Both the position numbers and the translations under genes were made by a program. A stretch of DNA of 64,000 nt from an uncultured Planctomycetales bacterium (GTDB lineage: Bacteria; Omnitrophota; Gorgyraeia; Zapsychrales; Fredricksoniimonadaceae): the NCBI GenBank assembly GCA_964572155.1, contig CAZNDZ010000001.1:207300-271299 (forward strand), written 5' to 3'. Numbering within the stretch: the first letter of the stretch is position 1; each line of letters begins with the position of its first letter. The notes beneath the pieces were generated by a model, which was not told the DNA's origin, did not search any database, and saw nothing but the letters and a program-made list of their open reading frames with translations. Of this stretch, positions 30,783-52,785 are shown one piece after another.

Positions 30783-30942
30783 AATATGTAACGCTCCCTT
30801 CTTAAGACCCCGTCCTGCGACTTTAAATTTGGTGCAGTAAACTCCATTTCTTAGTGTAAAAGGGAGGTAGCTGAACCAAAAAATTTTTGTGGTTTCCGAT
30901 TAAACTGTTTATGACTTTAAATAACACTTGTGCATTTTAGTC

Positions 30943-30970
30943 TTGACTTTTCTGCAGATGTATGCATAAT
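30943..30970 (+). promoter_or_regulatory. Sigma70-like promoter TTGACT-N16-CATAAT that would start a leaderless transcript at ATG 30978
   Basis: TTGACT at 30943-30948 and CATAAT at 30965-30970. No SD precedes either GTG 30930 or ATG 30978. Confidence 0.3.
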
Positions 30971-30977
30971 AGTCAGC

Positions 30978-36225: not shown

Positions 36226-37164
36226 TTAGTTGCCACCCAGCTTTTTAAGCGGGTTATTTTGGAAGAAGTCTAAGAAAACAGGTCCGGCAACCAAGATCCC
36301 AACCACTGGAAAGATAAACAAAAGTAATGGGATGAGCATTTTAAGTGGGGCTTTCATGGCCATTTGTTCGCCGCGGCGAAATCTTGCTTCGCGCATGTCT
36401 TCGGATAAGATGTTGAGCGCTTCACTGACTGATGTTCCCATGCGGTCAGCTTGGATGAGCGTACGCGCAAAAGTGGATAAATCTGGTAAATCATATTTGC
36501 GGGCCATGTCACGCAATGCGTCGCGGCGTGGTTTGCCGACATTGATCTCTTGGATCATGTTGCGCAATTCTTGGATGATCACCGTCGGCGCAGATTTTTC
36601 AATCACATATTTTAATGCCATCATAAAATCAAGACCTGCATTAACGCAAAGCCCTAAAAGATCGACGGTGTCAGGCAAATCGCGCACCATGGCATCGCGA
36701 ATTTTGCTAATCTTCGACTTGAGCCAAAAATCTGGCAGGAAATAACCAGCACCAATCGCGACAAAAATACCCATCATAAAACCTTCGTTGCTGGGCTCGA
36801 TAAAAATAAACACAACCCAAATCAACGCAAAGATCATAGCTTCTTTAAGCAAGATAAACTCTTCGGGACTAATCGGCACGCGTGCCATGCTTAAATCCTT
36901 CGCGATGCGTTGACCCAATGCTCCGACGACAAATGGCTTATTAAACACCGCAAAACGGGTGCTCATGTCTGAAATAACAAAGGCTAACCCTGTTTTCTTA
37001 GCTGTTCTGCTTTGTGGCGCGGCAATGCCTGTAACGGCAGGATCAGCCATGGGATCCATGTTTAGCGTCGGACGAAATACAATTTTAAACGGGATAAACA
37101 TGAGGCCTATGGCCATCACCGTCATGAACGCAAACAATAATCCAACAAATAATAAAGCTGACAT
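36226..37164 (-). CDS. tadC: Tad pilus inner-membrane platform protein (T2SS-F domain), TadC-like
   Basis: 312 aa with an N-terminal TM, a cytoplasmic T2SSF-like domain (...DLPDTVDLLGLCVNAGLDF...) and C-terminal TMs. It follows a TadB-like gene, in the usual tadA-tadB-tadC order. Confidence 0.7.
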   Translation of the reverse strand: MSALLFVGLLFAFMTVMAIGLMFIPFKIVFRPTLNMDPMADPAVTGIAAPQSRTAKKTGLAFVISDMSTRFAVFNKPFVVGALGQRIAKDLSMARVPISPEEFILLKEAMIFALIWVVFIFIEPSNEGFMMGIFVAIGAGYFLPDFWLKSKISKIRDAMVRDLPDTVDLLGLCVNAGLDFMMALKYVIEKSAPTVIIQELRNMIQEINVGKPRRDALRDMARKYDLPDLSTFARTLIQADRMGTSVSEALNILSEDMREARFRRGEQMAMKAPLKMLIPLLLFIFPVVGILVAGPVFLDFFQNNPLKKLGGN

Positions 37165-38027
37165 TAGAAGTCCTTAAATTTAGAAATTTTCCAAATGCTC
37201 AACGCGCCAAGTGTCCATAAGATGATACACGCAACCGTTAATTGTTGTCCCATCGGTGAATCACGCATAACATCAAAAAAATGAGGATTGCTTGACGAGA
37301 CAGCAAAATAGAATAAAACAGGCAAGCCTGTCATGACGACACCTTGGATTTTTCCTTGCACCGTCAATGTGGTTAAGCTTTGTTCAACCTTGCGTCGCTC
37401 GCGGGTGGAGGCAATGATGCGCGAGAAAATAAGCGCCAAGTTCCCCCCTGTTTCACGTGCTAACAAAACAGCGGTGACCACTTGCTGCATCGCTGGTGAC
37501 GGCATGCGCTTATAAAGACGGTTTAAGCTATCGTCCAAGGCAACCCCCATTTTATTTTCACCAAGGACAATACCAAATTCTTGACGCAGGGGATCAGGCA
37601 TTTCTTCGACGACAGACTCAATGGCTTGAATCAAACTCAGACCACCGCGGAACGAACTCGACATGATCATTAACGCATCCATCAATTGATTAGCAAACAT
37701 ACTCTTGCGTTTTGAAATCAAGTAACTTAAATGCACGCGAGGGATAAACACGCCTGCGACAATGCCGACGACAATACCGGCAAATTTCATGTCCGGTGGC
37801 GCAAAATAAACTGCCAAGCCGCCCAACAACAGCGGCACATAAATGATCATCTTCTGCGACTTTTTGATCTGATCTTCATTTAGAACAGCGTCGAACTTTA
37901 CAGCAAATTGTGCCTGACTTTTTTGATTCAAGGCAGCTGCGCGCTCCATCATGAAAGGGACAATGAAAATGACCACGATCATGACAGCCGCAAAAACAAG
38001 TATTAATCCGACGAACAAACTAAACAT
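37164..38027 (-). CDS. tadB: Tad pilus inner-membrane platform protein (T2SS-F domain), TadB-like
   Basis: 287 aa, TM-T2SSF-TM architecture (...MPDPLRQEFGIVLGENKMGVALDDSLNRL...). The stop overlaps the tadC start at 37164. Confidence 0.7.
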   Translation of the reverse strand: MFSLFVGLILVFAAVMIVVIFIVPFMMERAAALNQKSQAQFAVKFDAVLNEDQIKKSQKMIIYVPLLLGGLAVYFAPPDMKFAGIVVGIVAGVFIPRVHLSYLISKRKSMFANQLMDALMIMSSSFRGGLSLIQAIESVVEEMPDPLRQEFGIVLGENKMGVALDDSLNRLYKRMPSPAMQQVVTAVLLARETGGNLALIFSRIIASTRERRKVEQSLTTLTVQGKIQGVVMTGLPVLFYFAVSSSNPHFFDVMRDSPMGQQLTVACIILWTLGALSIWKISKFKDF

Positions 38028-38039
38028 CTTTATTTACCT

Positions 38040-38375
38040 TTATCTATTTGAACAAAATGCTGTCTGACATTCTGTTTTAACATCATCTTCACAAGCATAA
38101 TTGCCAGGTGTGCACGATTGAACTTTTCCTTGATAACAGGTGGCGTCATACCAAATGCCATTATTCGCATCAAGCTGTGAATAATCACATTCGACCGTAT
38201 TGCCATTATAGCGTCGACCCATCCCAAACGCATCGCCGCTTTTCTTCCAACTACCGCCAAACGCGCGGATCACATACGGCGAGATCACAATCATCCCACC
38301 TATGACGATTATAACCAATGCCATGTATTCCACAATAGATGCTGCTGTTTTTTTACGTAACATGATTATGGACAT
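38040..38375 (-). CDS. Flp/TadE-type pilin-like protein with a 7-Cys C-terminal domain
   Basis: Class-III signal-peptide-like N-terminus KKTAASIVEYMALVIIVIGGMIV, then ...VECDYSQLDANNGIWYDATCYQGKVQSCTPGNYACEDDVKTECQTAFCSNR. Confidence 0.6.
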   Translation of the reverse strand: MSIIMLRKKTAASIVEYMALVIIVIGGMIVISPYVIRAFGGSWKKSGDAFGMGRRYNGNTVECDYSQLDANNGIWYDATCYQGKVQSCTPGNYACEDDVKTECQTAFCSNR

Positions 38376-41300: not shown

Positions 41301-41842
41301 GCGGGATCTGTCACCGCATTTTGCAGCGCCCCTTGCAGGGCATTTGATAAAAATGTCTCCGTCGTCGAAAGCCCCGCATCTTTCTGCAATTGATTCCAAT
41401 ACCGCGTCAATCCCGGCTGAACCACCGCCACTTGCAACACCAAGCTTGCTGCGGATAAAGCTATCGATGCGGTTCCAACCGTGATCCCTAAACCAGGCAC
41501 CACTTGACTTAATGCAGCTTGACATGGTGTACAAAAAGTAACAATAATAATTACTAACAACAATGACAACAATGCCCCAAAAATACTGTTGTGTTTACAT
41601 TTCTGAAATGCACCGCCCAACTGCGTGCGCATTTGCATTTCACCGTAGCTCGCATAATTCGACGCCAACGATGACGCCGATGTTGTTGCTGCCACTGTCG
41701 TCACATTCTTAATCTGGGAAATACGACCCCAATTAAGCGTGATCGCAAATAAAATGATCGCAATTGAGCTCATGATGATTAACAATACTGAAGCTTGTCC
41801 GTTTTTCTTATGCATGCATCCTCTAATATTTAACCGCGGCAT
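38366..41842 (-). CDS. Giant (1158 aa) TadG/TadE-family pilin-like protein with a Cys-rich ~50-aa repeat array; putative pilus tip adhesin
   Basis: N-terminus ...MHKKNGQASVLLIIMSSIAIILFAITL (TadE/G-like; the real start may be M10 at 41815). The protein has more than 60 Cys. Repeats: CLKWYSDYDSQAGAHYYFKRCQ, CAVNSEYINWLNQSITYFGQTRAQYCG, CLGNTYVTWLQSKITEYGSNTISQIC, CSTPVAYSQWLQDSQASYAGEQTFAQYC, CTAGVNNKGQYQTWLDNTMAAMTG. Confidence 0.6.
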   Translation of the reverse strand: MPRLNIRGCMHKKNGQASVLLIIMSSIAIILFAITLNWGRISQIKNVTTVAATTSASSLASNYASYGEMQMRTQLGGAFQKCKHNSIFGALLSLLLVIIIVTFCTPCQAALSQVVPGLGITVGTASIALSAASLVLQVAVVQPGLTRYWNQLQKDAGLSTTETFLSNALQGALQNAVTDPAQVTDYFDSNSNGRHGFNVDRGKSEDTISRYAFYNTEQLRALRSKRGTVDLSVFTSGLTTLLPKISNPAPDVKSKDPRYNPCCQPLTDPESGKSLRPAANICPDRAQVPAICNNGNVWAFGSTYPLSYDPTRPDYTKFDSFLSKLGIDEEARVGGYPNVFTTNPASPNNTGLFKALWDMQDIRHKPSDADIAATAPSALISDAVDSDPKFFAPANMCANTTAPEDGLNWKPGKEAFCRTPDWPYEECDKYNCAGVNNGDDCCTAAESTSGLWPEDLLDDTIDHLKLFYAWGKAVLATDPAVLSTSLETFYDETPNPPQLSGKDWVGPVCDGNNDAVCGNGYSDGADGGALYTLHRRLKTWGETHLRPWLDKDHSSDTAWCVPTNQGGLSTLEQNTIAAGNVWGTLPTVVQCLKWYSDYDSQAGAHYYFKRCQDKIEGIKNSGTLVAKFQTCKTDYDKAIQAQTFDTCQTAVNATLAKAQASDQYRGCLARIDTLKAAGPGYCAGNPTAPPSPDCDSFALTAPSPAKPDIYDGCAVNSEYINWLNQSITYFGQTRAQYCGAPTKPTACTVLANTTGEPSFTNANVCLGNTYVTWLQSKITEYGSNTISQICANGPIASCQNLPASAIVPMPDDCSTPVAYSQWLQDSQASYAGEQTFAQYCATNPNRPPSPECDQATTLPRSVYGNYTGPYDVCTAGVNNKGQYQTWLDNTMAAMTGPGGQQEKFRNRYNYLSPILANVSSATEAVEEFTDDLKTFIDGPAQALVAARTAQNAAQINSIPNSIIYGWRDPDPPVGKGRTEGYWHVVQVSASAPGTLPSIGTKRKGFLGMTRCYFLRNYDGMARVNVVRWDEDHDTASFANKMPIWKVSFRKPGTEDAQNPSIPCTGGANSWNKIGLSANPDTFTQLSSVWGVETSNLTKPLLQGAFMISGEPPLNGAGRACYDHVMFNLLPKGVTTSVCARYGRDNNSGGLGVHFEKCP
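39150..40075 (-). repeat. Array of about 5 Cys-bounded 'C..Y..WL......(Y/F)G......(Y)C' repeats (aa ~591-896) in the 1158-aa protein
   Basis: Residue positions counted in the ORF translation: aa 591-612, 713-739, 765-790, 813-840, 872-896. The period is ~50 aa. Confidence 0.55.
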
Positions 41843-42050
41843 TCACGCGCTTTGTTCGATAAAATTCTGGTTGTAACTGCTGACGTACGTCTGTCCCATT
41901 TGTCATCGTGCTCTCATTTTCATAACGGCGTTCCGCTAAATCCATCCCCGCCCAGCGAAAAATCCGAATCATCCCTAAAGCTAATAAACAAATGGCAATC
42001 ATCACAAAGGTCATCTCAATCGTTGATTGGGCCCTTACCTTTCGGGTCAT
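41823..42050 (-). CDS. TadE-like small pilin-like protein (75 aa)
   Basis: KVRAQSTIEMTFVMIAICLLALGMI class-III SP-like N-terminus. Sits between the two large pilin-like genes and overlaps both ends. Confidence 0.5.
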   Translation of the reverse strand: MTRKVRAQSTIEMTFVMIAICLLALGMIRIFRWAGMDLAERRYENESTMTNGTDVRQQLQPEFYRTKRVNAAVKY

Positions 42051-43402
42051 GGTAATTTTCCTTTAGTGTCCGTCAGCCACGCATGCCCTGTTTTGTCTAA
42101 AACGCGTGTACGTATATACAGCATTTTAGAATCTGTGTCGAAACAGGTTAACTTAATATTATCTCCTGAGAAACACGATGACCCTCCCAATATACCCCCG
42201 CCGCCACATGCTTCCACAGGATTTTCTGTATTGTCAGGTAAGGTTGCCCTGGGCACGCCATTAACACAAAAACGTTGTGTGTCTCTGGTTAACTGAAACA
42301 TGCGTTGAACCAGTTCCACTTGATTTTTAACACCCGTGCTGCGCGCATATTGTCCGTCCTCAGGATTATAAAGTTTTCCTTCTTTAACTTCAAAGTATGT
42401 GCCAGGTTTTGTTTGCGTTAAAATGGACATTTCCCGCTGCAAGCCTGGGGTTCTGCCATTGATATACTCAACACTGCCATCATAATCCCCTTCTTGATTG
42501 TCCATGACCGTTGCTGATGATGCAATGCCATTGGCATCCACGTTATACGCGTAAATCTGTTCATCTTGCCCGTCATTGTCTAAATCAAATGAGGTATTTG
42601 TGCTATTGCCCACATCCACATTTAAATCAATAGCCCTAACTGCTTTCCAGTGCCATGCCATATCCGCACGGGCTAATTTGCCATTGGCAGCAGCCACTTG
42701 AGGATCGTCAGTAAAAATGTCATTGCGGTTTAGGTCATACGCTTCTTTATCTGTTAAAACACCTTGGTCTGCATTGGTCGACTGATTATAAAATAGCGGA
42801 CAGCCGTGCCACGTTTCAACAACTGGATTAACAAGCGGATCGCTGGTTGTTCTTAAACACTGAAATTCCCAACCCTTGTATCGTGTGATGCTAGTGTCGT
42901 CTGGATTGGTTGGCGTGATCGCAACGGGGGTTCCTGAATATGAACGTTGAAATCCCGCCGGCGGATCAAATGTTTTTGGCACCAGCGCCGCCGTGGTTAA
43001 AGGAATATGCACACCATTAACATAAAGATCGGTGGTTGGAAAATTACGTGCGTCAGATAATTCTGAACCTTCGAGGGGGTAATACAATAAATTGGTTAAC
43101 ATGCCGCTGCCCATGGTAAAAAGTTGCGTGCGGTCACTGTTGCCATAGCGGCTAATATCTGGTGAAAGTCTGTCTTCTAAATAAATCACACTACTATTCA
43201 TGCGACCAACGGTTCTGGTCAAAGAGTCATTATACGATTGCAAGAGCGCCATGCGCATGGCTTTTAATTGCACATTTTGTTGCTGGCTTGCAGACACACT
43301 GTTGCGGACAATGCCGCCGATCAAAAACACTAAGACAGCACCGAATACAGCTAATTCCGTCGCTGCTTGTGCTTTTTTATGCTTATTGAGAAACAAAAAC
43401 AT
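42047..43402 (-). CDS. TadG/TadE-like large pilin-like protein (~451-463 aa)
   Basis: ...MFLFLNKHKKAQAATELAVFGAVLVFLIGGIV... N-terminus. The track start is 43438; the internal ATG 43402 is preferred because it reduces overlap with the upstream pilin gene. The remainder is hydrophilic and Asp/Asn-rich. Confidence 0.55.
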   Translation of the reverse strand: MFLFLNKHKKAQAATELAVFGAVLVFLIGGIVRNSVSASQQQNVQLKAMRMALLQSYNDSLTRTVGRMNSSVIYLEDRLSPDISRYGNSDRTQLFTMGSGMLTNLLYYPLEGSELSDARNFPTTDLYVNGVHIPLTTAALVPKTFDPPAGFQRSYSGTPVAITPTNPDDTSITRYKGWEFQCLRTTSDPLVNPVVETWHGCPLFYNQSTNADQGVLTDKEAYDLNRNDIFTDDPQVAAANGKLARADMAWHWKAVRAIDLNVDVGNSTNTSFDLDNDGQDEQIYAYNVDANGIASSATVMDNQEGDYDGSVEYINGRTPGLQREMSILTQTKPGTYFEVKEGKLYNPEDGQYARSTGVKNQVELVQRMFQLTRDTQRFCVNGVPRATLPDNTENPVEACGGGGILGGSSCFSGDNIKLTCFDTDSKMLYIRTRVLDKTGHAWLTDTKGKLP

Positions 43403-43709
43403 TCCCACTCTTGCTCTCCGAGGATGACGATGAATCAATGCGATTCGTAAAATATTCTGTCTGCCCTGTTTGTGGATTTAACAACGGAACCGCCTGGACC
43501 ATGGTTTGAGATTGCGCCTGTGATGAATACCTGACGACGGAATTAACTTTCGATGGATCATACTGATCACCAAAATCATCGACGCTTTGCTTCCACCGCC
43601 CCTGAAATCCGCGCTTGATATACGTATTCATGGCCAGAAGCGCGAAAATAACAATCATCGCCAACACAATAAACTCAACCATCGATTGTCCATTATGTTT
43701 AAGTTTCAT
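43383..43709 (-). CDS. Flp-family pilin-like protein 8 (108 aa)
   Basis: MKLKHNGQSMVEFIVLAMIVIFALLAM: G/xxxxEF motif plus a hydrophobic helix. Confidence 0.6.
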   Translation of the reverse strand: MKLKHNGQSMVEFIVLAMIVIFALLAMNTYIKRGFQGRWKQSVDDFGDQYDPSKVNSVVRYSSQAQSQTMVQAVPLLNPQTGQTEYFTNRIDSSSSSESKSGNVFVSQ

Positions 43710-43712
43710 AAC

Positions 43713-44033
43713 TTAATTAATCCCTGCGTTTGTGACTGTATTTGTAAATGTTTGTGACGTTTCACTAACAATGGTTTGTATCCCCGCCGCTGTTTCATAA
43801 ATTTCTTTATTACTGCCCATTGAAACCATGGAATTTGACGTATCTAAATGCGATGATCCCGCACTATAATCTTGCTCAGAATTTTCTTGTGCTGCTAATT
43901 GGTCTGCCGTTGCCTTAATAATGCTTTGCGTTCCACGTTTAAAAGAGGGCGCCATAAAATACACCGCTGTCATCACCACGCCGACGATGATAATATATTC
44001 AACCAAAGATTGTCCCTGCGCATTATATTTCAT
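43713..44033 (-). CDS. Flp-family pilin-like protein 7 (106 aa)
   Basis: MKYNAQGQSLVEYIIIVGVVMTAVYF. Confidence 0.6.
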   Translation of the reverse strand: MKYNAQGQSLVEYIIIVGVVMTAVYFMAPSFKRGTQSIIKATADQLAAQENSEQDYSAGSSHLDTSNSMVSMGSNKEIYETAAGIQTIVSETSQTFTNTVTNAGIN

Positions 44034-44440
44034 TTAGCAGCCTCTGCTGGTGGCAACTGCGCACTGTCCGACCCTATTTGAGTGCTTTGTGCAAAATATT
44101 TTCCCCATCGCCCGTTTTCATCAAGAACCTTTTTATCCACACTATCGCGTCGCACCTCTGCTTCTGACTGGCCATAATATGGCTCATACTCATACGCTAT
44201 TTTTTGCGTTGCTGGATCAACCTTGGCTGCTCCTAAACAATCAACGCCACCGGCCGTTGCCTGCGTGCAGGCTTGGGTCGCCATATCAACCATATAAATT
44301 TTTCCATCACGATGCCTTGCTTGAAGGCCGCGCTGCACATAAAGTGTCATGGCTGAAATGCCTGCCACCACTACAAAAAACAAAAGCACGTATTCGCTGG
44401 TAACCATCTGCCCTTTGCGTGCGTGCTTGAGTTTCATCAT
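44030..44440 (-). CDS. Flp-family pilin-like protein 6 (136 aa)
   Basis: MMKLKHARKGQMVTSEYVLLFFVVVAGISAM; the C-terminal part contains 3 Cys. Confidence 0.55.
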   Translation of the reverse strand: MMKLKHARKGQMVTSEYVLLFFVVVAGISAMTLYVQRGLQARHRDGKIYMVDMATQACTQATAGGVDCLGAAKVDPATQKIAYEYEPYYGQSEAEVRRDSVDKKVLDENGRWGKYFAQSTQIGSDSAQLPPAEAAK

Positions 44441-44543
44441 ATCATCTCTAAATTTGCTTGAATATTATAAGCCCTAAAGGGGGGATATCGCTATCCCCCC
44501 TTATAAGACTTAAGACACCTCTTAACAAAAACACCTTAAGAGA

Positions 44544-44876
44544 CTATTCCCACTTCTCTCTGGAGGTATTAATGATTTGCGATGTTTCTGTTGTTAGATT
44601 GCTTTCAGTACCATTAATTACCGTCTTTGAAACACCTTGACCAGCGGCGCCACCAAATGTTTCGATGGTGTTGCTGTGCGTTGATGTTATTTTAACGGCC
44701 TTGGTATTGTCTGGTGAATATTGATCACCGATATCATCCGCAGATGACTTGACCTTACCTTGGATACCACGTTTGAGGTATGTTTGCACCGCGAGCAATG
44801 CGCCGATGATGATGATGATCAAAATCGCGTATTCAAGCGTGCTTTGAGCTTTCTTATTATTAAAGTGTTTAAACAT
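44544..44876 (-). CDS. Flp-family pilin-like protein 5 (110 aa)
   Basis: MFKHFNNKKAQSTLEYAILIIIIIGALLAV. A strong SD (AAGGAGGAG) precedes the ATG. Confidence 0.65.
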   Translation of the reverse strand: MFKHFNNKKAQSTLEYAILIIIIIGALLAVQTYLKRGIQGKVKSSADDIGDQYSPDNTKAVKITSTHSNTIETFGGAAGQGVSKTVINGTESNLTTETSQIINTSREKWE

Positions 44877-44893
44877 TACAACTCCTCCTTGTA

Positions 44894-45262
44894 TTAGAGC
44901 CCAGTTGGCATGTCGCCTGTACCAGCTGTAACATTATTTGAATATGTGGTTGATTGTTCACCTTGTTTTAAACGAGAATTTGCACTATCAGCTGCAACAA
45001 CACCTTCATCTAATATCTTTTTCTCTGTAGAATCTTTTTGAACAGAATAATTAGATTGTTGGTAATAAGGTTCATATTGCACTGATTTTCCTAATTGGCC
45101 TGTTGAATTAGCCATATAGGTACTGGCGTCACGCACACGGGCTTGCAATGCACGTTGTGCATATTGTTGCATCGCCACGATACCTGCCACAACCAAGGCG
45201 ATTAACAACGCATATTCTGCGGTGTTTTGAGCTTTCTTATTCTTTAATAAATGCTTAAACAT
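44894..45262 (-). CDS. Flp-family pilin-like protein 4 (122 aa)
   Basis: MFKHLLKNKKAQNTAEYALLIALVVAGIVAM; SD AAGGAGGAAATA upstream. Confidence 0.65.
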   Translation of the reverse strand: MFKHLLKNKKAQNTAEYALLIALVVAGIVAMQQYAQRALQARVRDASTYMANSTGQLGKSVQYEPYYQQSNYSVQKDSTEKKILDEGVVAADSANSRLKQGEQSTTYSNNVTAGTGDMPTGL

Positions 45263-45285
45263 ATATTTCCTCCTTATATGGGAAA

Positions 45286-45588
45286 TTAACCTTCACAATT
45301 ATTAGTTGCTGGATTGAATCTTTGATTTCCAGTACACAAACCTTGATTGGCTTGATTGCCAAAAATATTTGTATTAACTGTTGTTGTTGTAAATGTATCT
45401 TGTGCCGTAACCAATTTACCTGCCATGCTGTTAGCTTGTTGGGTTACTTGATCCATAGACGCATTCATTCTTTGCTTGAATGGGCTCGCATCTGAAACTA
45501 AGAAGGCGATTAAGATGACAATCACCCCTGTGACCAAGACGATATATTCTACCGTGCTCTGGCCTTTTTGACGATTTCTTAAAAACAT
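45286..45588 (-). CDS. Flp-family pilin-like protein 3 (100 aa)
   Basis: MFLRNRQKGQSTVEYIVLVTGVIVILIAFLV; SD AGGAGGAACA upstream; 2 Cys near the C-terminus. Confidence 0.65.
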   Translation of the reverse strand: MFLRNRQKGQSTVEYIVLVTGVIVILIAFLVSDASPFKQRMNASMDQVTQQANSMAGKLVTAQDTFTTTTVNTNIFGNQANQGLCTGNQRFNPATNNCEG

Positions 45589-45621
45589 ATGTTCCTCCTG
45601 AAAGTAAGTGGGTTGCTTTGT

Positions 45622-45813
45622 TTAAGGCGTGTTGGCCAAACGCGCTGCCGCGTTGGTCATGCTCACGCTTAATGTGTCCATCGTATTCGTCATCCGACGC
45701 TGAAACAGTGAACCATTCGTTGCCATATAGGCAATTGCCACCATCACAACAGCCGTGACGAGGATAATATACTCGACAGTACTTTGAGCTTTATCCTTTG
45801 ATGGCTTAAACAT
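45622..45813 (-). CDS. flp: Flp pilin (63 aa), candidate major pilin
   Basis: MFKPSKDKAQSTVEYIILVTAVVMVAIAYMA: canonical Flp size and motif. Strong SD AAAGGAGAGGGG upstream. Confidence 0.7.
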   Translation of the reverse strand: MFKPSKDKAQSTVEYIILVTAVVMVAIAYMATNGSLFQRRMTNTMDTLSVSMTNAAARLANTP

Positions 45814-45845
45814 GTGCTCCCCTCTCCTTTTAAGTTTATTAAATA

Positions 45846-45995
45846 TTAATTGGCGAATTCTTGTGTGACAGCTTTTTGGGTCGCTTGCGCGGAACGAAAT
45901 ACATAGGTACTCATCGCTGCAACAGCAGCGGTGATAACAGCCACGACAATGGCATATTCGATCAGGTTTTGTCCACTGGACTTGTGTAGTTGCAT
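45846..45995 (-). CDS. flp: Flp pilin (~49 aa from the internal ATG; 68 aa if from the track start 46052), candidate major pilin
   Basis: MQLHKSSGQNLIEYAIVVAVITAAVAAMSTYVF... An AAAGG lies ~11 nt upstream of ATG 45995. First gene of the pilin run. Confidence 0.6.
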   Translation of the reverse strand: MQLHKSSGQNLIEYAIVVAVITAAVAAMSTYVFRSAQATQKAVTQEFAN

Positions 45996-46120
45996 CGTCG
46001 TGTGACCTTTGTATTTGTTAATGCTGTCCTGGCCCTTAGTTTGTCCCAACAACTCAAACTAATCAAGAACTCTTGGTCGCGGGCCTTCATTTATATTAAA
46101 TCCCCATAGGGGATAGAATT

Positions 46121-46133
46121 CATACCAATGGTA
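46121..46133. promoter_or_regulatory. 13-bp palindrome ATACCA-A-TGGTAT in the leader/promoter region of the pilin gene run
   Basis: Read directly. Lies in the 46053-46159 AT-rich spacer upstream of the first flp gene; a possible operator. Confidence 0.25.
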
Positions 46134-46159
46134 TAGTATGGCATATTATATATAGAGCG

Positions 46160-47641
46160 TCAACCTAGACGCGCCCATATTTTTCGGCCATGTTGGTCAA
46201 TAATATCTAAATTATTTAAAAGCCTGCATGAATGCTCAATCGAATCAAAATCTTTATAACCTTCTGTTCTATCTATGGTTACAACATTTAAACGGGCATT
46301 AAATTGCCTGCGTGTGCGAAGCGCGTTGGCACTATCATCAAATACGCCGAAAAGATGTGCCGCATAGTCTGTTTTTAAGTTGTTTAAAGTCGCATTATCA
46401 GCTTTTTTATCTTCTGGCGCGCTATCTAACGTAAAGGTATGCACATAGCTTAAAACGATGTCTTGATCTGAAGTTGCATTTGCAATATTAGTAATCAAGA
46501 CCCGTTCTGGTTTTCCTTCACTGGACAAAATTACAAAGCCGCGATAGGACTCATCTGCCAAAATAATGTCACGGCTTACAAATTTGACAGGTTGATGCAA
46601 AACATAGGTGTTGACCATTTGGATTGGACTTAAATCACCCGCCATCAAAGAAGCCATGTCTTTATTGGCGACATCTATACCTATAATAAATTGACGCTTT
46701 ACATGCGCAATTGGCGCAAAATCAATCAATACATCTTGATTGGAATCAACAAGCGCAATGCGACTGATTTGCTTTGACGGGTCATTGCTCATAGCTCTTA
46801 AAAAATCGTAAACAGCAGCGTCGAGAAAATCACTTTTAATGTTTTTAATAATCAGTGGTCGGATATTATTAAGCAACGTATCTGCCATCCGCAGCGTCGC
46901 GGTCTCTATTGGCGTTAGTCGCAGGGGCTCACAAAAATTGCGAGCAATATCGTGATGACGCGCATCAATGAAAAAATGACTGTCGTCGCCAAGTTCCACT
47001 TTAAGACAAGCCACGCCAATTTGCCGATACGCCGCTTCCTTGGCAAGGGTTGCTGCATCAACGTTTTCTAAATCGTCGACGGATTTCACACTACCCCATG
47101 GACTTGGAAATAAATCGTTGAACGCTGCTTGGATAAAGAAATCTTTAGCTGTTGCAACATCCGCCCCATCTTCAAGCGGTGGTAAGGTATTGATCGTCGG
47201 TAAATCTGCTTCTCGCGGCGGATCTTGAAATAGTGGGATCATTGGTTCGACACGTAAAGTTAACGGCTCGTCCTGTTGTGCGTCTTCTTTGATGTCGTCT
47301 TGTGAAGACATGATAGGCAAATCTTCAGACGCCATTAATGGCGTCTCTACGGATAATTGTGGAACCGTGGGAATGTTGGCAATGATGGCGGGGGGCAAAC
47401 TGGCAATCAATTGCGCTTTTTTATCGTCGGGGATCTGAAATTTATTTTTAAACTTTCGACCACGCGGACTTACAATGTTAGCTTCTTTAAGCACTTCGTG
47501 CACGGAAGACTTGGATACAACCCGACCAAATTGTTTATCAACTAATTCAACCAACTCTCGACAAGAAAGATTGGCAGATTGTTTTTTCTGGTCCAAGATA
47601 AAAGCAACCACGTCATCCGTTAATTTATACGTTACACCCAT
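46160..47641 (-). CDS. Hypothetical 493-aa protein with an N-terminal HTH-like segment, embedded in the Tad locus
   Basis: MGVTYKLTDDVVAFILDQKKQSANLSCRELVELVDKQFGRVVSKSSVHEVLKEANIV (helix-turn-helix-like), a Pro/Asp-rich linker, then a ~330-aa domain I could not assign. Confidence 0.5.
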   Translation of the reverse strand: MGVTYKLTDDVVAFILDQKKQSANLSCRELVELVDKQFGRVVSKSSVHEVLKEANIVSPRGRKFKNKFQIPDDKKAQLIASLPPAIIANIPTVPQLSVETPLMASEDLPIMSSQDDIKEDAQQDEPLTLRVEPMIPLFQDPPREADLPTINTLPPLEDGADVATAKDFFIQAAFNDLFPSPWGSVKSVDDLENVDAATLAKEAAYRQIGVACLKVELGDDSHFFIDARHHDIARNFCEPLRLTPIETATLRMADTLLNNIRPLIIKNIKSDFLDAAVYDFLRAMSNDPSKQISRIALVDSNQDVLIDFAPIAHVKRQFIIGIDVANKDMASLMAGDLSPIQMVNTYVLHQPVKFVSRDIILADESYRGFVILSSEGKPERVLITNIANATSDQDIVLSYVHTFTLDSAPEDKKADNATLNNLKTDYAAHLFGVFDDSANALRTRRQFNARLNVVTIDRTEGYKDFDSIEHSCRLLNNLDIIDQHGRKIWARLG

Positions 47642-47644
47642 ATA

Positions 47645-47986
47645 TTATGTGATCGTCAGTTCATCCCCTTGTTGAGTTTGCGTCTGATCAATTTTACCAG
47701 CAGGTAATTCAATCGCGCAACAAGAATTAAAGAACAGGGGAGACAAATGATATGGCTTTAATTGACGGCACAAACCAACAACACGATTTTTCTGATCTAG
47801 AAAAATAACATCGATTGCAAAACGCATAAAAAACATGTGCACCGACGAGCAAGGCGTGATCTGTAGGCCTTCTCCATCTGGCAAATAGTTTTCCCCAAGC
47901 AAACCCTTCATGCGTAGTTTGGCTGTGTCCGCAACTCTCAGGCGTGTCGCTAAGATGCTGTTGCGGGTTTTGTTGGTTAGCGTCAT
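47645..47986 (-). CDS. DUF192 (COG1430) family protein, frequently associated with tad loci
   Basis: ...RLRVADTAKLRMKGLLGENYLPDGEGLQITPCSSVHMFFMRFAIDVIFLDQKNRVVGL...CCAIELPAG matches the DUF192 pattern (A...RxxGLMgr...gmlf...vhmf.m.f.lDiifld). Confidence 0.55.
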   Translation of the reverse strand: MTLTNKTRNSILATRLRVADTAKLRMKGLLGENYLPDGEGLQITPCSSVHMFFMRFAIDVIFLDQKNRVVGLCRQLKPYHLSPLFFNSCCAIELPAGKIDQTQTQQGDELTIT

Positions 47987-47988
47987 GT

Positions 47989-50175
47989 TTATGGATTAAA
48001 AATATTCTTAGAAAGTGGGATGCCGCGTGTTTGGAAGTCTTCGAAAATTTTTGGCACATACCCTGTGGGCGTATATTCACCAACAACAACCCCTTCGGCA
48101 TTGATGCCGCGTTGACGGAAGATGAAAATGTCTTTCATTTCAGGAAGGCCGTCGACCATGTTACCTGTAAGCTCCGTGATCGCGGTGATCTTACGCGTCC
48201 CGTCGGAGAAACGGTTAATTTGAATGACAATATTGATCGCAGATGCCGCCATTTCATAGATCGCGCGCAATGGCAATTCAATCCCTGAGAGCAGCACCAT
48301 GGAGGTCACACGAGACATAACGTCGCGTGGTGTGTTGGCGTGAAGCGTTGTCAACGAACCATCGTGACCTGTGTTCATCGCCTGCAACATGTCTAAAACT
48401 TCCGGTCCACGACACTCACCGATAATAATGCGGTCTGGGCGCATACGTAACGTGTTAATAAATAACTCACGGATGGTGATCTTACCACGACCTTCAATGT
48501 TCGCTGGTCTTGCTTCAAGGCGCGCCCAATGTGATTTGGTTAAACGCAATTCCGCCGCGTCTTCGATTGTAATGATGCGTTCATTATCAGGAATAAATTG
48601 TGAAACAATGTTGAGCAGCGTTGTCTTACCAGCGCCGGTACCACCAGAGACAATAATATTCTTACGCCCAATAACGCACGCATTCATAAACTCACCCATG
48701 GCAGGCGTCAGCGAATGAAAACGATTAAGCAAATCATCGATCGTATATTTTTCTTGAGAGAATTTACGAATGGTGATCATGGGGCCGCCCAACGACAACG
48801 GCGGAATGATGGCATTGATACGGCTTCCATCAGGCAAACGCGCATCCACCATCGGCGTTGATTCATCAACCCGACGACCTAAAGGTGCTAAAATACGATC
48901 AATCGTTGCACGCACCTGATCGTTGGAAATAAAACGCTTATTCGTGAGCAGCAATTTACCTTTTTTCTCAACAAAGATTTCATCCTTATTGTTAACCATG
49001 ATGTCATTGATATCGACATCCGCTAAGAAATCTTCCAATGGCCCCAAACCTAAGGCCTCGTTGACAATTTCACGCACAAGTTTAGAACGTTCTTCTTGAG
49101 ATGAAATAAAACTACCCGATGCATCGGTCATCAAATCGGTTACAATAACTTCGGCTGCCTTGCGAATATTTGCAGCTTGCGCAGGATCTGAGAGCGCTTC
49201 CGGCGATATCTTTTGCAAATTCATGCGCTCAACCAACTTTTGATGGATTAAGCGCTTTAATTTAATAACTTCGTCTTCTTCTTTTTTAAAATAAGTCCCG
49301 CCACCAGAGCCCTGCTTAATACCAAATTTTTCCCAGAACTCGGCATCTTTCTTATTCTTAGGGTCTGCCGAGCGAACCTTAACAACGTCGGAGACCTGCA
49401 CAAAGATGTCTTCATCTTGTAATTTATCCGCCATGCCAAAAAACAGCTCGGAGACTTTTGCCTTTGGACTGTCTAAAACACATGGAATACCGCGATTAAG
49501 CGCTGAACCAACGGTTTTACCGTCGGATGGGATTAACGCAAAAATATCGCAAGGCAATGCTGTTTTCACTTCTTGCCATGCAACACCCCCGCGACTTTCA
49601 GCACGATTTAATATGATTTTAATCATACGCAGCGGATAATGCAGTGCTTGCAACATCTCAAGCGTTGACTTGGCTTGATACACCGCCAAGACATCCGGCG
49701 TGGTTGGCAAGAAAATCAAACTAGATTGATCAAGAACGCTAATCAAGACTTCATTAAATGTGCCGCCGCCATCGACGATGATATATTCATATTGTAACAT
49801 GGCGCGTTTTAAAAATATGCGCACATTGTCGCCTGTCACCAAACCTGCTTGCCGTAAATGATTAATGCCAGATAAGAAATCAACGCCGCTAACATGCTTA
49901 ACCACAAAACGACGCATAAAATCTGGGTTGTCATCTTTGGCCACTTCAGCGAGCAAGTCTGCTAAACAAAATGGTGCGGAAATATTTAAGGAACGGGCAA
50001 GATCTTGACCCGCTTGTAAATTCATATCAAGCAACAATACTTTCTTAGCCTTCATGGCAAGCGCGGCAGCAATGTTTGCGCTAATAAAGGTCTTACCGAC
50101 CCCGCCCTTATTGGAAAATATGGTTATGATTTTACAAGACATACTTCTCTTTGGATCATTTTGCCTGGTAGACAA
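47989..50175 (-). CDS. cpaF: Fused Tad secretion ATPases: N-terminal CpaE/TadZ-like ParA/MinD ATPase plus C-terminal CpaF/TadA VirB11-family ATPase (728 aa)
   Basis: N-part: KIITIFSNKGGVGKTFISANIAAALAMKAKKVLLLDMNLQ (deviant Walker A) ...YIIVDGG... C-part: ...IIVSGGTGAGKTTLLNIVSQFIPDNERIITIEDAAELRL...PDRIIIGECRG...NTGHDGSLTTLHAN... (CpaF/TadA Walker A and B, Asp and His boxes). One ORF, no internal stop. Confidence 0.8.
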   Translation of the reverse strand: MSTRQNDPKRSMSCKIITIFSNKGGVGKTFISANIAAALAMKAKKVLLLDMNLQAGQDLARSLNISAPFCLADLLAEVAKDDNPDFMRRFVVKHVSGVDFLSGINHLRQAGLVTGDNVRIFLKRAMLQYEYIIVDGGGTFNEVLISVLDQSSLIFLPTTPDVLAVYQAKSTLEMLQALHYPLRMIKIILNRAESRGGVAWQEVKTALPCDIFALIPSDGKTVGSALNRGIPCVLDSPKAKVSELFFGMADKLQDEDIFVQVSDVVKVRSADPKNKKDAEFWEKFGIKQGSGGGTYFKKEEDEVIKLKRLIHQKLVERMNLQKISPEALSDPAQAANIRKAAEVIVTDLMTDASGSFISSQEERSKLVREIVNEALGLGPLEDFLADVDINDIMVNNKDEIFVEKKGKLLLTNKRFISNDQVRATIDRILAPLGRRVDESTPMVDARLPDGSRINAIIPPLSLGGPMITIRKFSQEKYTIDDLLNRFHSLTPAMGEFMNACVIGRKNIIVSGGTGAGKTTLLNIVSQFIPDNERIITIEDAAELRLTKSHWARLEARPANIEGRGKITIRELFINTLRMRPDRIIIGECRGPEVLDMLQAMNTGHDGSLTTLHANTPRDVMSRVTSMVLLSGIELPLRAIYEMAASAINIVIQINRFSDGTRKITAITELTGNMVDGLPEMKDIFIFRQRGINAEGVVVGEYTPTGYVPKIFEDFQTRGIPLSKNIFNP

Positions 50176-51910
50176 TAGGAATGGTTACATTTAAATCCGA
50201 CGCTTGCATGTCTTTTGAAAATGGAGCGTAAGGCGCCGCGATTTTGGCAGCATTTAACGCATCGTCGTCGAAAGCTTGATGCCCCGAAGACTGCACCACG
50301 TTAGCTGCAATCAATGTCCCATCTTTTTGAATATTTAGTCTTAATTTAACTGTGCCCTGCCATTTATTTTTCAATGCTTCCAGTGGATATGAAATATTTT
50401 GCGATATCTTCACTTGAATATCTTGCATATATTTCTGAACGGTCGCAATCGGCTCTTGAACAGCTACTTCTTTTTTAATCTGCTCTTCTAAGATCGCCTT
50501 GGGCTTCTGCGCCGGCATTTCAACGCGTTTAACCTTTGCTGGCACAACAGCTGGCTCATCTTGTGCTGGCATGGTTGTAACATTACCCATATTAGGATTT
50601 GGATCAACCGGCTCACGCTTATAATTATTTATTTTCTCTGCTTCATCAACAAAATCATTTAATTCCTTCGTTGGTATTACAAATTGATCCTTGGCATATT
50701 TTTTATTATGCACAATAACTGGCGTTAAGGTGATCACAAGTTCCTTGGCTTCATCTGGTGCTTGCTTAGAAGAGCTTCTAAACATCATCCCAACAACGGG
50801 AATCTTTCCTATAAATGGAACGCTTTTCTTTTGATCACTGTCTGTATAACGAATCAACCCCGCCATAACCACCGTTTGTTTATCATCCAACATCAATTGC
50901 GTTGTAGCGTTGCGTGTTTTATAAGCGACACCGTTTGTCGATGTTGCGGCAACAGGAAATGTTGTATCAATGTCGCTGACTTGCAAGTTCATCAACACAT
51001 CGATCTTGCCTTCTTTAATTGTTGGTGTAACTGTAACGGTTAAACCATATTGCTTGAAGGTGACATTGGTTTGTGTGCTGGTCGATGACGCAGATGTTGT
51101 GGTCGACTGGATTGGTACTTCCCCGCCAACATTAATGGTGGCTTCTTTACCGCTGGTTACCAACATGCGTGGGCGTGATAATGTGCGCGCTTTACCTTGA
51201 GACACTAAAAGATTAATGGTGTTGATGATGCTGGTGGTGCGATTAAATTGCCCTAACTTAAACCAGTTGGGAGACCCACCGGTTGTTGGGTTGCCTGATT
51301 CCGCATAAGTTAATGTTGTGCCGCCGCCGCTATTTGTCCAATCAAATCCTAACTTCTTATCAAGTGTTGAGGATAATTCCGTGATCTGCATATCAATCTG
51401 AATTAATTCCTGCGCTTCATCTTCCTTGCACAAATTAATCACTTGTTCAGAAAATGGTTCGAGCACTTTATCTAAACGGGATTTTTGATCTTTATTAACG
51501 TTGCCCGAAAGAACCACTTTGCCTTCCACATAATTAGCATCATAAACAATTGTTGTAATACCAGCATCTTTCAATAGCGTTTCAATGCGTGCTTTAATCC
51601 TTGCTAAGTCATCATTAGCGACGTTGACGGAATAAACCTTCTTGCCACCTTTATCCCAAACAAAAAGGATCGTGTGCCCCATGCGCCTTGCCACAACAGA
51701 AACTTCATTATCATTGGCGTCAGCAATGTCAGCAATGTCAGGATCAGTTACAGAAACGCGAGTTAAACCATCGACCTTAACGTTCTGAACGTCGCCTAGG
51801 ATCATGTTAATATTATGGTCTTCTTGGGCAATGGACATTGTCGCTTGTGACCCTATGAAAAGAAGTCCCAGCGCAACGAAAGATAATTTAATACGGGAGA
51901 TGCGCATCAA
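50156..51910 (-). CDS. cpaC: Tad secretin (CpaC/RcpA) with a C-terminal TonB-C-like domain extension
   Basis: Signal peptide MMRISRIKLSFVALGLLFIGSQATMSIAQ. Secretin C-domain ...VPFIGKIPVVGMMFRSSSKQAPDEAKELVITLTPVIV. The last ~110 aa (...ISYPLEALKNKWQGTVKLRLNIQKDGTLIAANVVQSSGHQAFDDDALNAAKIAAPYAPF...) match the TonB_C signature YP..A...eGtV.v.f.I..dG.v....V..SSG...LD.aA..Av...p..P. Confidence 0.75.
   Translation of the reverse strand: MMRISRIKLSFVALGLLFIGSQATMSIAQEDHNINMILGDVQNVKVDGLTRVSVTDPDIADIADANDNEVSVVARRMGHTILFVWDKGGKKVYSVNVANDDLARIKARIETLLKDAGITTIVYDANYVEGKVVLSGNVNKDQKSRLDKVLEPFSEQVINLCKEDEAQELIQIDMQITELSSTLDKKLGFDWTNSGGGTTLTYAESGNPTTGGSPNWFKLGQFNRTTSIINTINLLVSQGKARTLSRPRMLVTSGKEATINVGGEVPIQSTTTSASSTSTQTNVTFKQYGLTVTVTPTIKEGKIDVLMNLQVSDIDTTFPVAATSTNGVAYKTRNATTQLMLDDKQTVVMAGLIRYTDSDQKKSVPFIGKIPVVGMMFRSSSKQAPDEAKELVITLTPVIVHNKKYAKDQFVIPTKELNDFVDEAEKINNYKREPVDPNPNMGNVTTMPAQDEPAVVPAKVKRVEMPAQKPKAILEEQIKKEVAVQEPIATVQKYMQDIQVKISQNISYPLEALKNKWQGTVKLRLNIQKDGTLIAANVVQSSGHQAFDDDALNAAKIAAPYAPFSKDMQASDLNVTIPIVYQAK
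50159..50500 (-). other. TonB-C-like domain fused to the secretin C-terminus
   Basis: See above; coordinates derived from residue positions ~470-584. Confidence 0.5.
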
Positions 51911-52785
51911 AGCTCCTTGCCGCCTCTAAAGATTTGTATATCTGGTTTAGCGGGCTTGTCGTCGTCTTGATTAATGATGCCTTTTAAATCGTCCGGTAAA
52001 TCAATGTCTGCGCCTTGATTTTGCAAGACATAATCTGCCAATGTTTTCCATGTGGTTGTCTTGACCATTTGGCGTTCGGTTTCTTGAGGAGAACGCAATG
52101 CAAATTCAAGCGTACCATTCTTATCCGCAAAAATTAAATAACCTGCTTCTTGAGGATCAACCGCTAAGGTCACCTTGATCGCCGGAGAATTTTGTTGTTC
52201 TTCATAACGTGTGCCTGTTTCATCTAAATTGGTGTTAACCGCCAAGACTTCTAGGCCTTGAAAGACCATGGCCGTAATGGTTTTTTGTTTGCGTTCGCCA
52301 TCTTTGCCTAATCGGCCTTCAGGAACATTGAGCCTTGCGATGATGTCAACCATATCCCCTGGATTAAGCAAACCACCGACGGCTGCCAAAGAATCGATCT
52401 TAACGGTAACCGCGCGCTTGCCTTGTGGCGTCTTTAACGCTAAAGAAGGTTTGGATTTCTTAACAGGTTGTCCACCTGCATTAGCTGCTTGTTGTTGCTG
52501 TAATTTCGTTTGAAGCTCAGCAATTTGCTTTTGAACCACTTGGGCTTGTTCAGTGCGCACTGCTTGGATTTGTTGCTGTAAAATCGCCGCGCGTTGATCT
52601 GCTTGCGCTTGCATTTCAGCAACTATTTTCTTTTGCTTAGCTTCATATTCTTCCCGACGCTCAATATCGTGGCGCTCAATGGTGCTGTTGACAGCAAAAC
52701 CAATCACGGCTGTTGCCGCGATACCCAAGACCACCGCGACGATCAGCAATAGAATTTGTTTTTTATTATTATCCATAGTGCGCAA
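51907..52785 (-). CDS. cpaB: Flp pilus assembly protein CpaB/RcpC (TM anchor, Q-rich coiled coil, SAF/RcpC domain)
   Basis: MRTMDNNKKQILLLIVAVVLGIAATAVIGF; a coiled coil with a QQQQ run; ...RAVTVKIDSLAAVGGLLNPGDMVDIIARL... Overlaps the secretin start (ATGA). Confidence 0.7.
   Translation of the reverse strand: MRTMDNNKKQILLLIVAVVLGIAATAVIGFAVNSTIERHDIERREEYEAKQKKIVAEMQAQADQRAAILQQQIQAVRTEQAQVVQKQIAELQTKLQQQQAANAGGQPVKKSKPSLALKTPQGKRAVTVKIDSLAAVGGLLNPGDMVDIIARLNVPEGRLGKDGERKQKTITAMVFQGLEVLAVNTNLDETGTRYEEQQNSPAIKVTLAVDPQEAGYLIFADKNGTLEFALRSPQETERQMVKTTTWKTLADYVLQNQGADIDLPDDLKGIINQDDDKPAKPDIQIFRGGKEL

Follow-up and report, generated by a model that had tools for sequence, protein, structure and literature searches.

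Omnitrophota are ultra-small bacteria of wide distribution, most of them uncultured, with a presumed predatory or parasitic way of life. A 64 kb stretch of DNA from an Omnitrophota genome (contig CAZNDZ010000001.1; the whole stretch is hereafter referred to as the window) carries a gene cluster in which secretin and motor genes are followed by a dozen genes with pilin-like N-termini, and this raises the question of what such a cluster builds: a pilus, a secretion device or, given its many small open reading frames (ORFs), nothing that is made in full. The answer regarded here as the probable one, with appreciable doubt, is a Tad pilus of Omnitrophota, in which pilin 1, the product of the first small pilin gene, would form the fibre, the distal pilins would be minor or tip subunits, a protein of 1149 amino acids (aa) would be an inner-membrane component and the whole would serve in prey or host contact beside a giant protein encoded downstream.

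Giant genes of Omnitrophota have been reported to be generally preceded, throughout the phylum, by a conserved secretion system of more than 10 subunits (West-Roberts et al. 2023, bioRxiv). That preprint names gspD/secretin, gspE, gspF, rcpC, a Rotamase_2 peptidyl-prolyl isomerase and 'many small genes… class III signal peptides' as members of the conserved locus, labels it 'type II secretion system-like' and describes C39 and GGDEF domains in the 'Archaeovorin' giant proteins. The orthologous region of Ca. Velamenicoccus archaeovorus LiM was described as a complete Tad complex by Seymour et al. (2023), according to whom TadB/C of the Velamenicoccia group with those of Bdellovibrionales; that paper, citing Kizina 2022, reports the LiM complex to be expressed in co-culture with archaeal prey. 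The analysis of the flanks of Omnitrophota giant genes is repeated in a 2026 preprint. Since the locus, its small class III genes and its link with the giant gene are already published, the present finding is a rediscovery: the locus is known, its arrangement is the norm for Omnitrophota and the analysis adds detail. The window, with the same phylum, the same components and the same position before a C39/GGDEF giant gene, is an instance of that locus, whereas no pilin count or classes, large protein with three transmembrane (TM) segments, large-headed pilin of 451 aa, internal promoter or hairpin is found in the accessible portions of the two papers. The details that go beyond these portions include pilin 1 as the most constrained pilin, a conserved leader with a promoter-like element and a terminator-like hairpin after pilin 5.

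Assembly machinery

Candidate ORFs of the window were scanned with Pfam and NCBIfam. The 20 ORFs of the cluster are all on the minus strand, co-oriented and uninterrupted from 52785 to 36226, with intergenic gaps of at most 33 nucleotides (nt) or overlaps, the exceptions being the spacers ahead of pilin 1 (164 nt) and pilin 6 (103 nt). The same ORFs are called by a gene caller on independent assemblies of the same organism. The gene order (RcpC/CpaB, secretin, TadZ-TadA fusion, DUF192 protein, 493-aa protein, eight small pilin ORFs, proteins of 451, 75, 1149 and 107 aa, TadB and TadC) agrees with that given in a first-pass annotation of this DNA, and Pfam bears out the machinery genes listed here. 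Numbers such as L014 denote related loci in other genomes.

52806–53735, minus strand: SurA/PpiC-type peptidyl-prolyl isomerase (PPIase) lipoprotein, conserved first gene of the locus (Pfam Rotamase_2 and SurA_N_3); directly upstream of CpaB in L001–L008
51907–52776, minus strand: RcpC/CpaB, 289 aa (Pfam RcpC 90.4 bits against a cut-off of 28.8; start as in the independent gene call)
50156–51907, minus strand: RcpA/CpaC-type secretin with a fused C-terminal TonB_C domain (Pfam Secretin 134.8, T2SS-T3SS_pil_N 43.4 and TonB_C 65 bits)
47989–50142, minus strand: 717-aa fusion of TadZ/CpaE (ParA-like) with the TadA/CpaF ATPase (CbiA/AAA_31/ParA at residues 14–218; T2SSE at 375–652, 191.9 bits)
47645–47986, minus strand: DUF192 protein, conserved accessory gene (Pfam DUF192 66.8 bits; position kept in nine loci)
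46160–47641, minus strand: 493-aa protein with a weak N-terminal helix-turn-helix (HTH), possible regulator (HTH_32 22.5 bits against a cut-off of 33.7; position conserved, fast-evolving)
37164–38027, minus strand: TadB platform protein, 287 aa (single T2SSF domain, PF00482; 79% and 56% identity in L014 and L015)
36226–37164, minus strand: TadC platform protein, 312 aa (single T2SSF domain, PF00482; 79% and 61% identity in L014 and L015)

A split platform, TadZ, RcpC and a TadA-type motor set the type IVc (Tad) pili apart from the type II secretion system (T2SS) and from other type IV filaments (Pelicic 2023). Since the split TadB/TadC pair, TadZ, RcpC and a TadA-type ATPase are all present, the locus is assigned, by its sequence, to the Tad-type (type IVc) pilus machines. 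The top NCBIfam match of the ATPase is TIGR03819 of the TadA family (2.3e-95, 319.7 bits, below the equivalog cut-off of 373), and the fusion of TadZ with TadA is found in all the related loci.

The TonB_C domain occupies the C-terminal ~80 aa of the secretin (50156–50400, minus strand), in place of the pilotin-binding S-domain. The fusion is kept in distant Omnitrophota loci (L007, 8390–9994; L012; L014), and no gene for the TadD pilotin was seen at the locus. Nothing useful was found in the literature linking DUF192 proteins to pili. The 493-aa protein, called an HTH protein in the first-pass annotation, retains that description only as a weak match below the cut-off; its N-terminal HTH resembles, below threshold, the N-termini of IS630/IS481 transposases, and a Pro-rich linker connects it to a C-terminal domain of ~350 aa that has no annotation. 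Its orthologues are 23–49% identical, and it evolves much faster than the neighbouring genes.

Pilin-type proteins and their class III signal

The six frames of the 64 kb were searched with a strict motif, defined as [GA]-x4-E-[YFMLW] followed by 14 uncharged hydrophobic residues, with a start codon at most 35 codons upstream. Ten matches were obtained, all lying on the minus strand between 38.3 and 46.0 kb, as against none in the reversed sequence and none in each of 30 shuffles. The class III signal (a short basic leader with Gly or Ala as its last residue, a Glu at +5 and about 20 hydrophobic residues) is strictly present in 10 of the 12 candidates. The claim that all twelve share one signature therefore holds in the strict sense for these ten; pilin 6 carries its Glu at +6, and the largest protein, which had been counted as a pilin, lacks Glu5 and has three TM segments. 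Eleven of the proteins have leaders of the form [KR]-[GA]/Q-x-x-x-E-[YF] (the slash marks the predicted cleavage site) followed by one hydrophobic helix. The predicted set is accordingly tallied as 11 single-helix pilin-type proteins and one pilin-like polytopic membrane protein, and the number of pilin-type genes is indeed, as had been proposed, far above the canonical Tad set of Flp, TadE, TadF and TadG (Pelicic 2023).

According to the gene caller the 12 candidates measure 49, 63, 100, 122, 110, 136, 106, 108, 451, 75, 1149 and 107 aa. The shorter leaders that it assigns to three of them replace the initial sizes of 463, 1158 and 111 aa by 451, 1149 and 107 aa, the 75-aa protein being unchanged, and all leaders then have 7–13 residues. 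The ten candidates other than the two largest are as follows.

45846–45995, minus strand: pilin 1, Flp-sized at 49 aa (41 aa when mature), candidate for the major subunit (SSG/QNLIEY); first gene after the promoter-like element
45622–45813, minus strand: pilin 2, 63 aa, small and Flp-like (KA/QSTVEY; Class_IIIsignal 21.8 bits against 23.7); weak paralogue of pilin 3
45286–45588, minus strand: pilin 3, 100 aa (KG/QSTVEY; Class_IIIsignal 20.2 bits)
44894–45262, minus strand: pilin 4, 122 aa (KA/QNTAEY; Flp_Fap 14.5–17.4 bits, sub-threshold); paralogue of pilin 6 (z 13.8)
44544–44876, minus strand: pilin 5, 110 aa, large family conserved over its full length (KA/QSTLEY)
44030–44440, minus strand: pilin 6, 136 aa, non-canonical (GQMVTSEY, Glu one residue late)
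43713–44033, minus strand: pilin 7, 106 aa (QG/QSLVEY); orthologues in L005, L001, L010 and L015
43383–43709, minus strand: pilin 8, 108 aa (NG/QSMVEF; weak TadE, 13.8 bits); paralogue of pilins 5 and 12
41823–42050, minus strand: short pilin, 75 aa (RA/QSTIEM; weak TadE, 14.3 bits against 22.9); always between the orthologues of the 451-aa and 1149-aa proteins
38040–38363, minus strand: pilin 12, 107 aa, 6 Cys (TA/ASIVEY); paralogue of pilin 8; orthologues after the large protein in L008, L014 and L015

Paralogy within the array joins pilin 4 with pilin 6, pilin 5 with pilins 8 and 12 and, weakly, pilin 2 with pilin 3. In the L010 orthologue of pilin 6, Gln replaces the Glu. Pilin 5 has 766 homologues of 50–60% identity over 99% of its length, some of them named UPF0333 or Flp by JGI. 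The exact proteins of the window are present in NCBI and Logan, without names, on a contig of 1.34 Mb. Overlapping stops and starts in the array suggest translational coupling; the strong Shine-Dalgarno sites credited to the small ORFs in the first-pass annotation are AGGAGG-like and are found at pilins 2–5 but not at the other pilin genes.

Recognition by known families was weak at the level of the single protein. The window pilins score 11–17.4 bits on Flp_Fap (PF04964; gathering cut-off 32.2) and about 14 bits on TadE (PF07811; cut-off 22.9), their best scores, 21.8 and 20.2 bits, being those on the archaeal Class_IIIsignal family (PF04021; gathering cut-off 23.7); the NCBIfam scan of these pilins gave nothing relevant. 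At the family level, 49 N-terminal fragments from the window and four related loci were compared with Pfam: 20 members matched Class_IIIsignal (best E 5.9e-6), 13 matched Flp_Fap (sub-threshold, best E 9e-5), six matched TadE and three matched TadF, which ranked lower, and some unrelated membrane-protein families were among the matches too. A profile of the N-termini, compared with all PDB sequences, gave four matches, all of them type IV pilins, at marginal E-values of 0.17–0.24; the top ones were the Tad pilins 8u1k and 8u2b, with Glu5-Tyr6 in register. PDB sequence searches with a pilin 5 profile, with an N-terminal profile of the 451-aa family and with pilin 1 alone gave only one weak pilin match and one spurious match.

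Gln stands at +1 in 47 of the 49 N-termini, a feature that was not imposed by the search pattern. The idea that it marks a specifically archaeal origin was dropped, TadE-type proteins often having Gln at this position as well.

The 451-aa and 1149-aa proteins

42047–43402, minus strand: large pilin, 451 aa, with a stalk helix and a beta-rich head of ~390 aa
38366–41815, minus strand: Cys-rich protein of 1149 aa; class-III-like leader, Glu5 absent, three TM segments; resembles TadG in its position but not in its sequence

The pilin fold was tested on the 451-aa protein only. Its AlphaFold 2 (AF2) model has a mean predicted local distance difference test score (pLDDT) of 90.6, with a helix at residues 7–61 and a beta-rich head, and the protein is confidently modelled as a pilin stalk plus head. 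The head found no match in the PDB.

The N-terminus of the 1149-aa protein reads GQASVLLII, without Glu5. Its TM segments lie at residues 9–27, 78–96 and 109–127, and all three are conserved in 16 of its 19 homologues, whereas every other pilin candidate has a single hydrophobic segment. All the homologues that bear a taxon name are Omnitrophica, some relatives carry Ig-like domains (Big_7, PKD, Filamin) and two family members show weak SseC-translocator-like matches (E 0.0084). The AF2 model (pLDDT 55) is too poor for any inference of fold. Since the protein is polytopic, the usual extraction of a filament subunit from the membrane could not apply to it, and its three TM segments argue for retention in the inner membrane. 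Its most likely role there is that of a TadG-like assembly component, with a very large domain facing the periplasm or the surface. TadG is listed among the cytoplasmic-membrane components by Pelicic (2023).

Residues ~620–840 of the 1149-aa protein, the least conserved region of the family, contain four or five repeats flanked by Cys, with the pattern Y-x2-W-[LV]-x6-10-Y-C-x6-10-C.

Conservation across Omnitrophota

An ATPase-based scan of the GTDB representative genomes gave ten loci, all in metagenome-assembled genomes (MAGs) of Omnitrophota, some of them labelled 'Planctomycetales'. Wherever the sequence suffices, the order in these loci is PPIase, CpaB, secretin, TadZA, DUF192 protein, ~490-aa protein, 7–11 small pilins, proteins of ~450, ~75, ~1100 and ~110 aa, TadB and TadC, and the same order is observed at ATPase identities from 92% down to ~50%. 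The architecture, together with one-to-one orthologues, is kept in seven loci (L001, L005, L010, L014, L015, L007 and L008), and the size pattern and adjacency of the 451/75/1149-aa trio are likewise conserved in seven. Pilin 1 is the most conserved pilin in each comparison (86, 86, 86, 67, 78, 60 and 47% identity), and in the locus only the ATPase is higher; pilins 4 and 5 are conserved nearly as well.

The presence of an orthologue for each window pilin, combined with old paralogy within the array, indicates an ancient set of distinct subunits and not a recent amplification. The comparison with related genomes that the first-pass annotation had proposed was carried out and shows its architecture in seven related loci, whereas its description of the locus as 'hyper-expanded', in the sense of something peculiar or recent, has to be given up: one-to-one orthologues persist down to ~50% ATPase identity and the related loci have 10–15 pilin-type genes each, which is the usual number in the phylum.

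The L007 locus has an insertion of transposase-like genes that separates the DUF192 gene from a ~570-aa gene. The MAGs of L001, L004 and L010 were deposited as 'uncultured Planctomycetales bacterium'; their ATPases are 63–88% identical to those of Omnitrophota genomes, and the labels are probably wrong.

Non-coding elements of the pilin array

45996–46163, minus strand: promoter-like element TTGACG-17-CATACT (46163–46135) and leader of ~130 nt upstream of pilin 1; conserved
44462–44518, minus strand: stable hairpin in the gap from pilin 5 to pilin 6; may act as an intrinsic terminator or attenuator (-39.6 kcal/mol, z -5.9)

The 164-nt region before pilin 1 shows 85% column identity across the window, L005 (13288–13449) and L001 (13998–14162), with both hexamers invariant, whereas the adjoining 493-aa protein is only 49% identical in the same three genomes. 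A few compensatory pairs were seen in the leader among four sequences, which are too few for a conclusion, and the region may be a structured regulatory leader; Rfam gave no match anywhere in 36–54 kb, the leader included.

The hairpin emerged from folding the 103-nt gap after pilin 5. Hairpins occupy the same position in L005 (14900–14992), L001 (15600–15691), L014 (7116–7207) and L010 (6474–6555), with z from -3.7 to -7.1; that of L010 has an unrelated stem sequence followed by a U-tract, the position having been kept while the sequence turned over. The promoter-like element and the hairpin would split the array into a promoter-proximal unit (pilins 1–5), four of whose five genes have AGGAGG-type ribosome-binding sites, and a distal, mostly translationally coupled unit running from pilin 6 to tadC.

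The giant gene and the downstream neighbourhood

32104–36162, minus strand: 1352-aa secreted protein with a Sec-type signal peptide, directly downstream of the locus; membership of the system uncertain
2–30508, minus strand: giant ORF of at least 10,169 codons, a stop-free frame running off the window; conserved downstream neighbour

At E<=1e-4 the only Pfam domains of the giant ORF are Peptidase_C39 (residues 221–299, near the N-terminus) and GGDEF, some 8,500 residues in, and by these predicted domains it corresponds to the 'Archaeovorin' type of West-Roberts et al. In L014 and L015, too, a giant gene lies beyond TadC on the same strand, of 16,700 and 26,040 aa respectively. The adjacency to the giant gene pointed out in the first-pass annotation is thereby upheld, the locus lying upstream of it in all three loci with a readable downstream side (the window, L014 and L015).

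The 1352-aa protein has no Pfam or NCBIfam match, and part of its sequence is duplicated within it, with 47% identity over 325 aa. A homologue of 1271 aa occupies the same position in L014, and none is present in L015. The stretch between tadC and the giant gene (30930–32099 in the window, plus strand; 14490–16373 in L015; 15610–21181 in L014) is short and variable, with an AAA_14/DUF4143 ATPase on the opposite strand in the window and in L015, toxin-antitoxin genes (MazE, BrnT) in L015 and L014 and a DUF1016/YhcG gene in L014. A suspected truncation of dnaA was rejected, the gene being intact and running off the window edge.

Comparison with other Tad and pilin systems

With the canonical Tad/Flp systems (the tad locus of A. 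actinomycetemcomitans and the cpa locus of Caulobacter) the locus has in common RcpC, an RcpA-type secretin, TadZ, TadA, split TadB/TadC, a Flp-sized pilin and the G/xxxxEY register. It differs from them in having 11 pilin-type genes as against Flp, TadE and TadF, in the fusion of TadZ with TadA, in a secretin with TonB_C, in the insertion of the DUF192 and ~490-aa genes and in lacking TadV, TadD and RcpB at the locus; moreover, none of its pilins attains the cut-off of Flp_Fap, TadE or TadF, and Gln occupies +1 in nearly all of them.

The Kil system of Myxococcus xanthus is a predatory Tad pilus with interchangeable Tips, in which one Flp pilin is the major subunit and small pilins, entirely helical, serve as adapters; in each Tip trimer an extended and a short subunit are joined by a very large one that is rich in Cys and whose distal domain has no homologue in the PDB (Herrou et al. 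2025). The 451/75/1149-aa trio agrees with these in size pattern and in adjacency, the head of the 451-aa protein likewise being without a PDB match. In contrast to the four dispersed Tip clusters of Myxococcus, all the pilins lie here in one operon with a single set of large proteins; no TadE/F/G sequence homology is detectable, the largest protein has three TM segments and no T3SS* (type III secretion system) partner was seen.

The Tad system of Bdellovibrio bacteriovorus, essential in prey attachment and invasion, has a TadZ-TadA hybrid, no TadV in its tad loci, Flp1 processed by PilD and multiple flp genes (2026 bioRxiv preprint). The TadZA fusion, the absence of TadV from the locus and the multiple pilin genes are shared, whereas the tad genes of Bdellovibrio are dispersed over several loci and those of Omnitrophota form one compact operon, with more pilins and beside a giant gene.

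The archaeal class III pilins (PF04021/UPF0333) provide the best-matching hidden Markov model for the N-termini and share Gln at +1 and Glu at +5, and some homologues are labelled UPF0333 by JGI. The machine here is that of a diderm bacterium, with secretin, RcpC and TadZ, and the window proteins remain just below the PF04021 cut-off. Their lineage, that of the Epd pilus, is thought to be the source of the type IVc pili (Pelicic 2023).

Proposed working of the locus and alternative explanations

In the Tad pilus favoured here, a prepilin peptidase encoded elsewhere in the genome would cleave the prepilins after Gly or Ala; the suggestion draws on the parallel with Bdellovibrio, with its PilD processing, its tad loci without TadV and its TadZA fusion. 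Pilin 1, which we infer from its mature length of 41 aa, its Flp-like size and its constraint to be the major subunit, would form the bulk of the fibre. Pilins 1–5 would be transcribed from the promoter-like element at 46163 and made in excess, since the conserved hairpin after pilin 5 is proposed to attenuate read-through. The products of genes past the hairpin (pilins 6–8, the 451-aa and 75-aa pilins and the Cys-rich pilin 12) would be low-abundance minor pilins that prime assembly and form a tip or adapter complex, a counterpart to the TadE/F/G-type 'Tip' trimers and the Flp adapters in Myxococcus Kil. The function suggested by the biology of the phylum and the conserved neighbourhood would be contact with, or attachment to, prey or host cells together with the downstream giant 'archaeovorin-type' surface protein.

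Several observations weigh against this reading. Peptidase_A24 (the TadV/CpaA prepilin peptidase) had no match among the scanned ORFs of the window or in the flanks of L007, and RcpB, like TadD, was not seen at the locus. All the window pilins stay below the Pfam and NCBIfam cut-offs for Flp_Fap, TadE, TadF and Tad, which goes part of the way towards refuting the original assignment of the N-termini to the Flp/TadE type, the best model being Class_IIIsignal. The E-values of the PDB matches are marginal. Among 30 N-termini of the 451-aa family none matches TadE (PF07811) or TadF (PF16964). Similarly, PF13400 (Tad) is absent from the matches at E<=1 of the 19 members of the 1149-aa family, which therefore offers no TadG match; 25 of the 28 families matched were listed, and the three others match at most one member each. 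As regards the proposed transcription units, the hairpin is absent in L007 and L015, and consensus scans for promoters and terminators performed at chance level. The choice of pilin 1 as major subunit has to contend with the very large, well conserved family of pilin 5 and with ribosome-binding sites that are stronger at pilins 2–5 than at pilin 1.

A T2SS-like exporter, in which a short periplasmic pseudopilus would push substrates such as parts of the giant protein, the 1352-aa protein or hydrolases through the secretin, without a long adhesive fibre, is considered unlikely. It would agree with the 'type II secretion system-like' label and the conserved place beside giant genes stressed by West-Roberts et al., with the Sec signal of the 1352-aa protein encoded directly downstream and with the resemblance of many minor (pseudo)pilins and one Glu5-less component to GspG–K. 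The split TadB/TadC, RcpC, TadZ and TadA-type ATPase, however, are features of type IVc pili and not of the T2SS: the ATPase scores 36–38 bits (7.5e-10) on the GspE models, with cut-offs of 617–630, and TIGR03819 is far ahead of both GspE and PilB. GspC, GspL and GspM had no match among the scanned ORFs of the window, and no single GspF with two T2SSF domains was found there. The 1352-aa gene, moreover, is missing in L015, and the giant proteins have SecA-like domains of their own according to West-Roberts et al.

Equally improbable is a fibre without a single major pilin, in which pilins 1–5 would co-polymerise or would serve as alternative major subunits according to prey or condition. The location of these five genes as a unit between the conserved promoter-like element and the hairpin speaks for such a fibre, as do the strongest Shine-Dalgarno sites at pilins 2–5, the near-equal conservation of pilins 4, 5 and 1 and the 766 members of the pilin 5 family. 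Known type IV filaments, on the other hand, consist of one major subunit with low-abundance minor pilins (Pelicic 2023), one-to-one orthology and C-terminal domains that differ from pilin to pilin speak against interchangeable variants and in favour of fixed, non-redundant roles, and nothing points to recent duplication or to switching elements.

A composite prey-contact device coupled to the giant protein, in which the small pilins would co-polymerise, the Glu5-less 1149-aa protein would cap the fibre and the hairpin of its TM segments 2–3 would insert into the prey envelope, is more doubtful still. Finally, that the small ORFs are chance ORFs or decaying duplicates, not all of them real or expressed, as the want of curated family matches, of database names and, for several, of a clear Shine-Dalgarno site might suggest, is effectively refuted by the conserved length and order of the orthologues of each ORF in up to seven other genomes, the motif-free controls, the agreement of independent gene calls and the stop/start overlaps suggestive of translational coupling.

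Conclusions

The system favoured here, a Tad pilus of Omnitrophota, is one of a known kind and reveals no new kind. The gene-by-gene list of its parts turns a loosely labelled 'secretion system' into testable hypotheses about the probable fibre, the tip or adapter subunits, the membrane-protein 'pilin' and the boundaries of transcription. Together with the giant gene beside it, the locus is the chief candidate in these genomes for the means by which Omnitrophota seize other cells.

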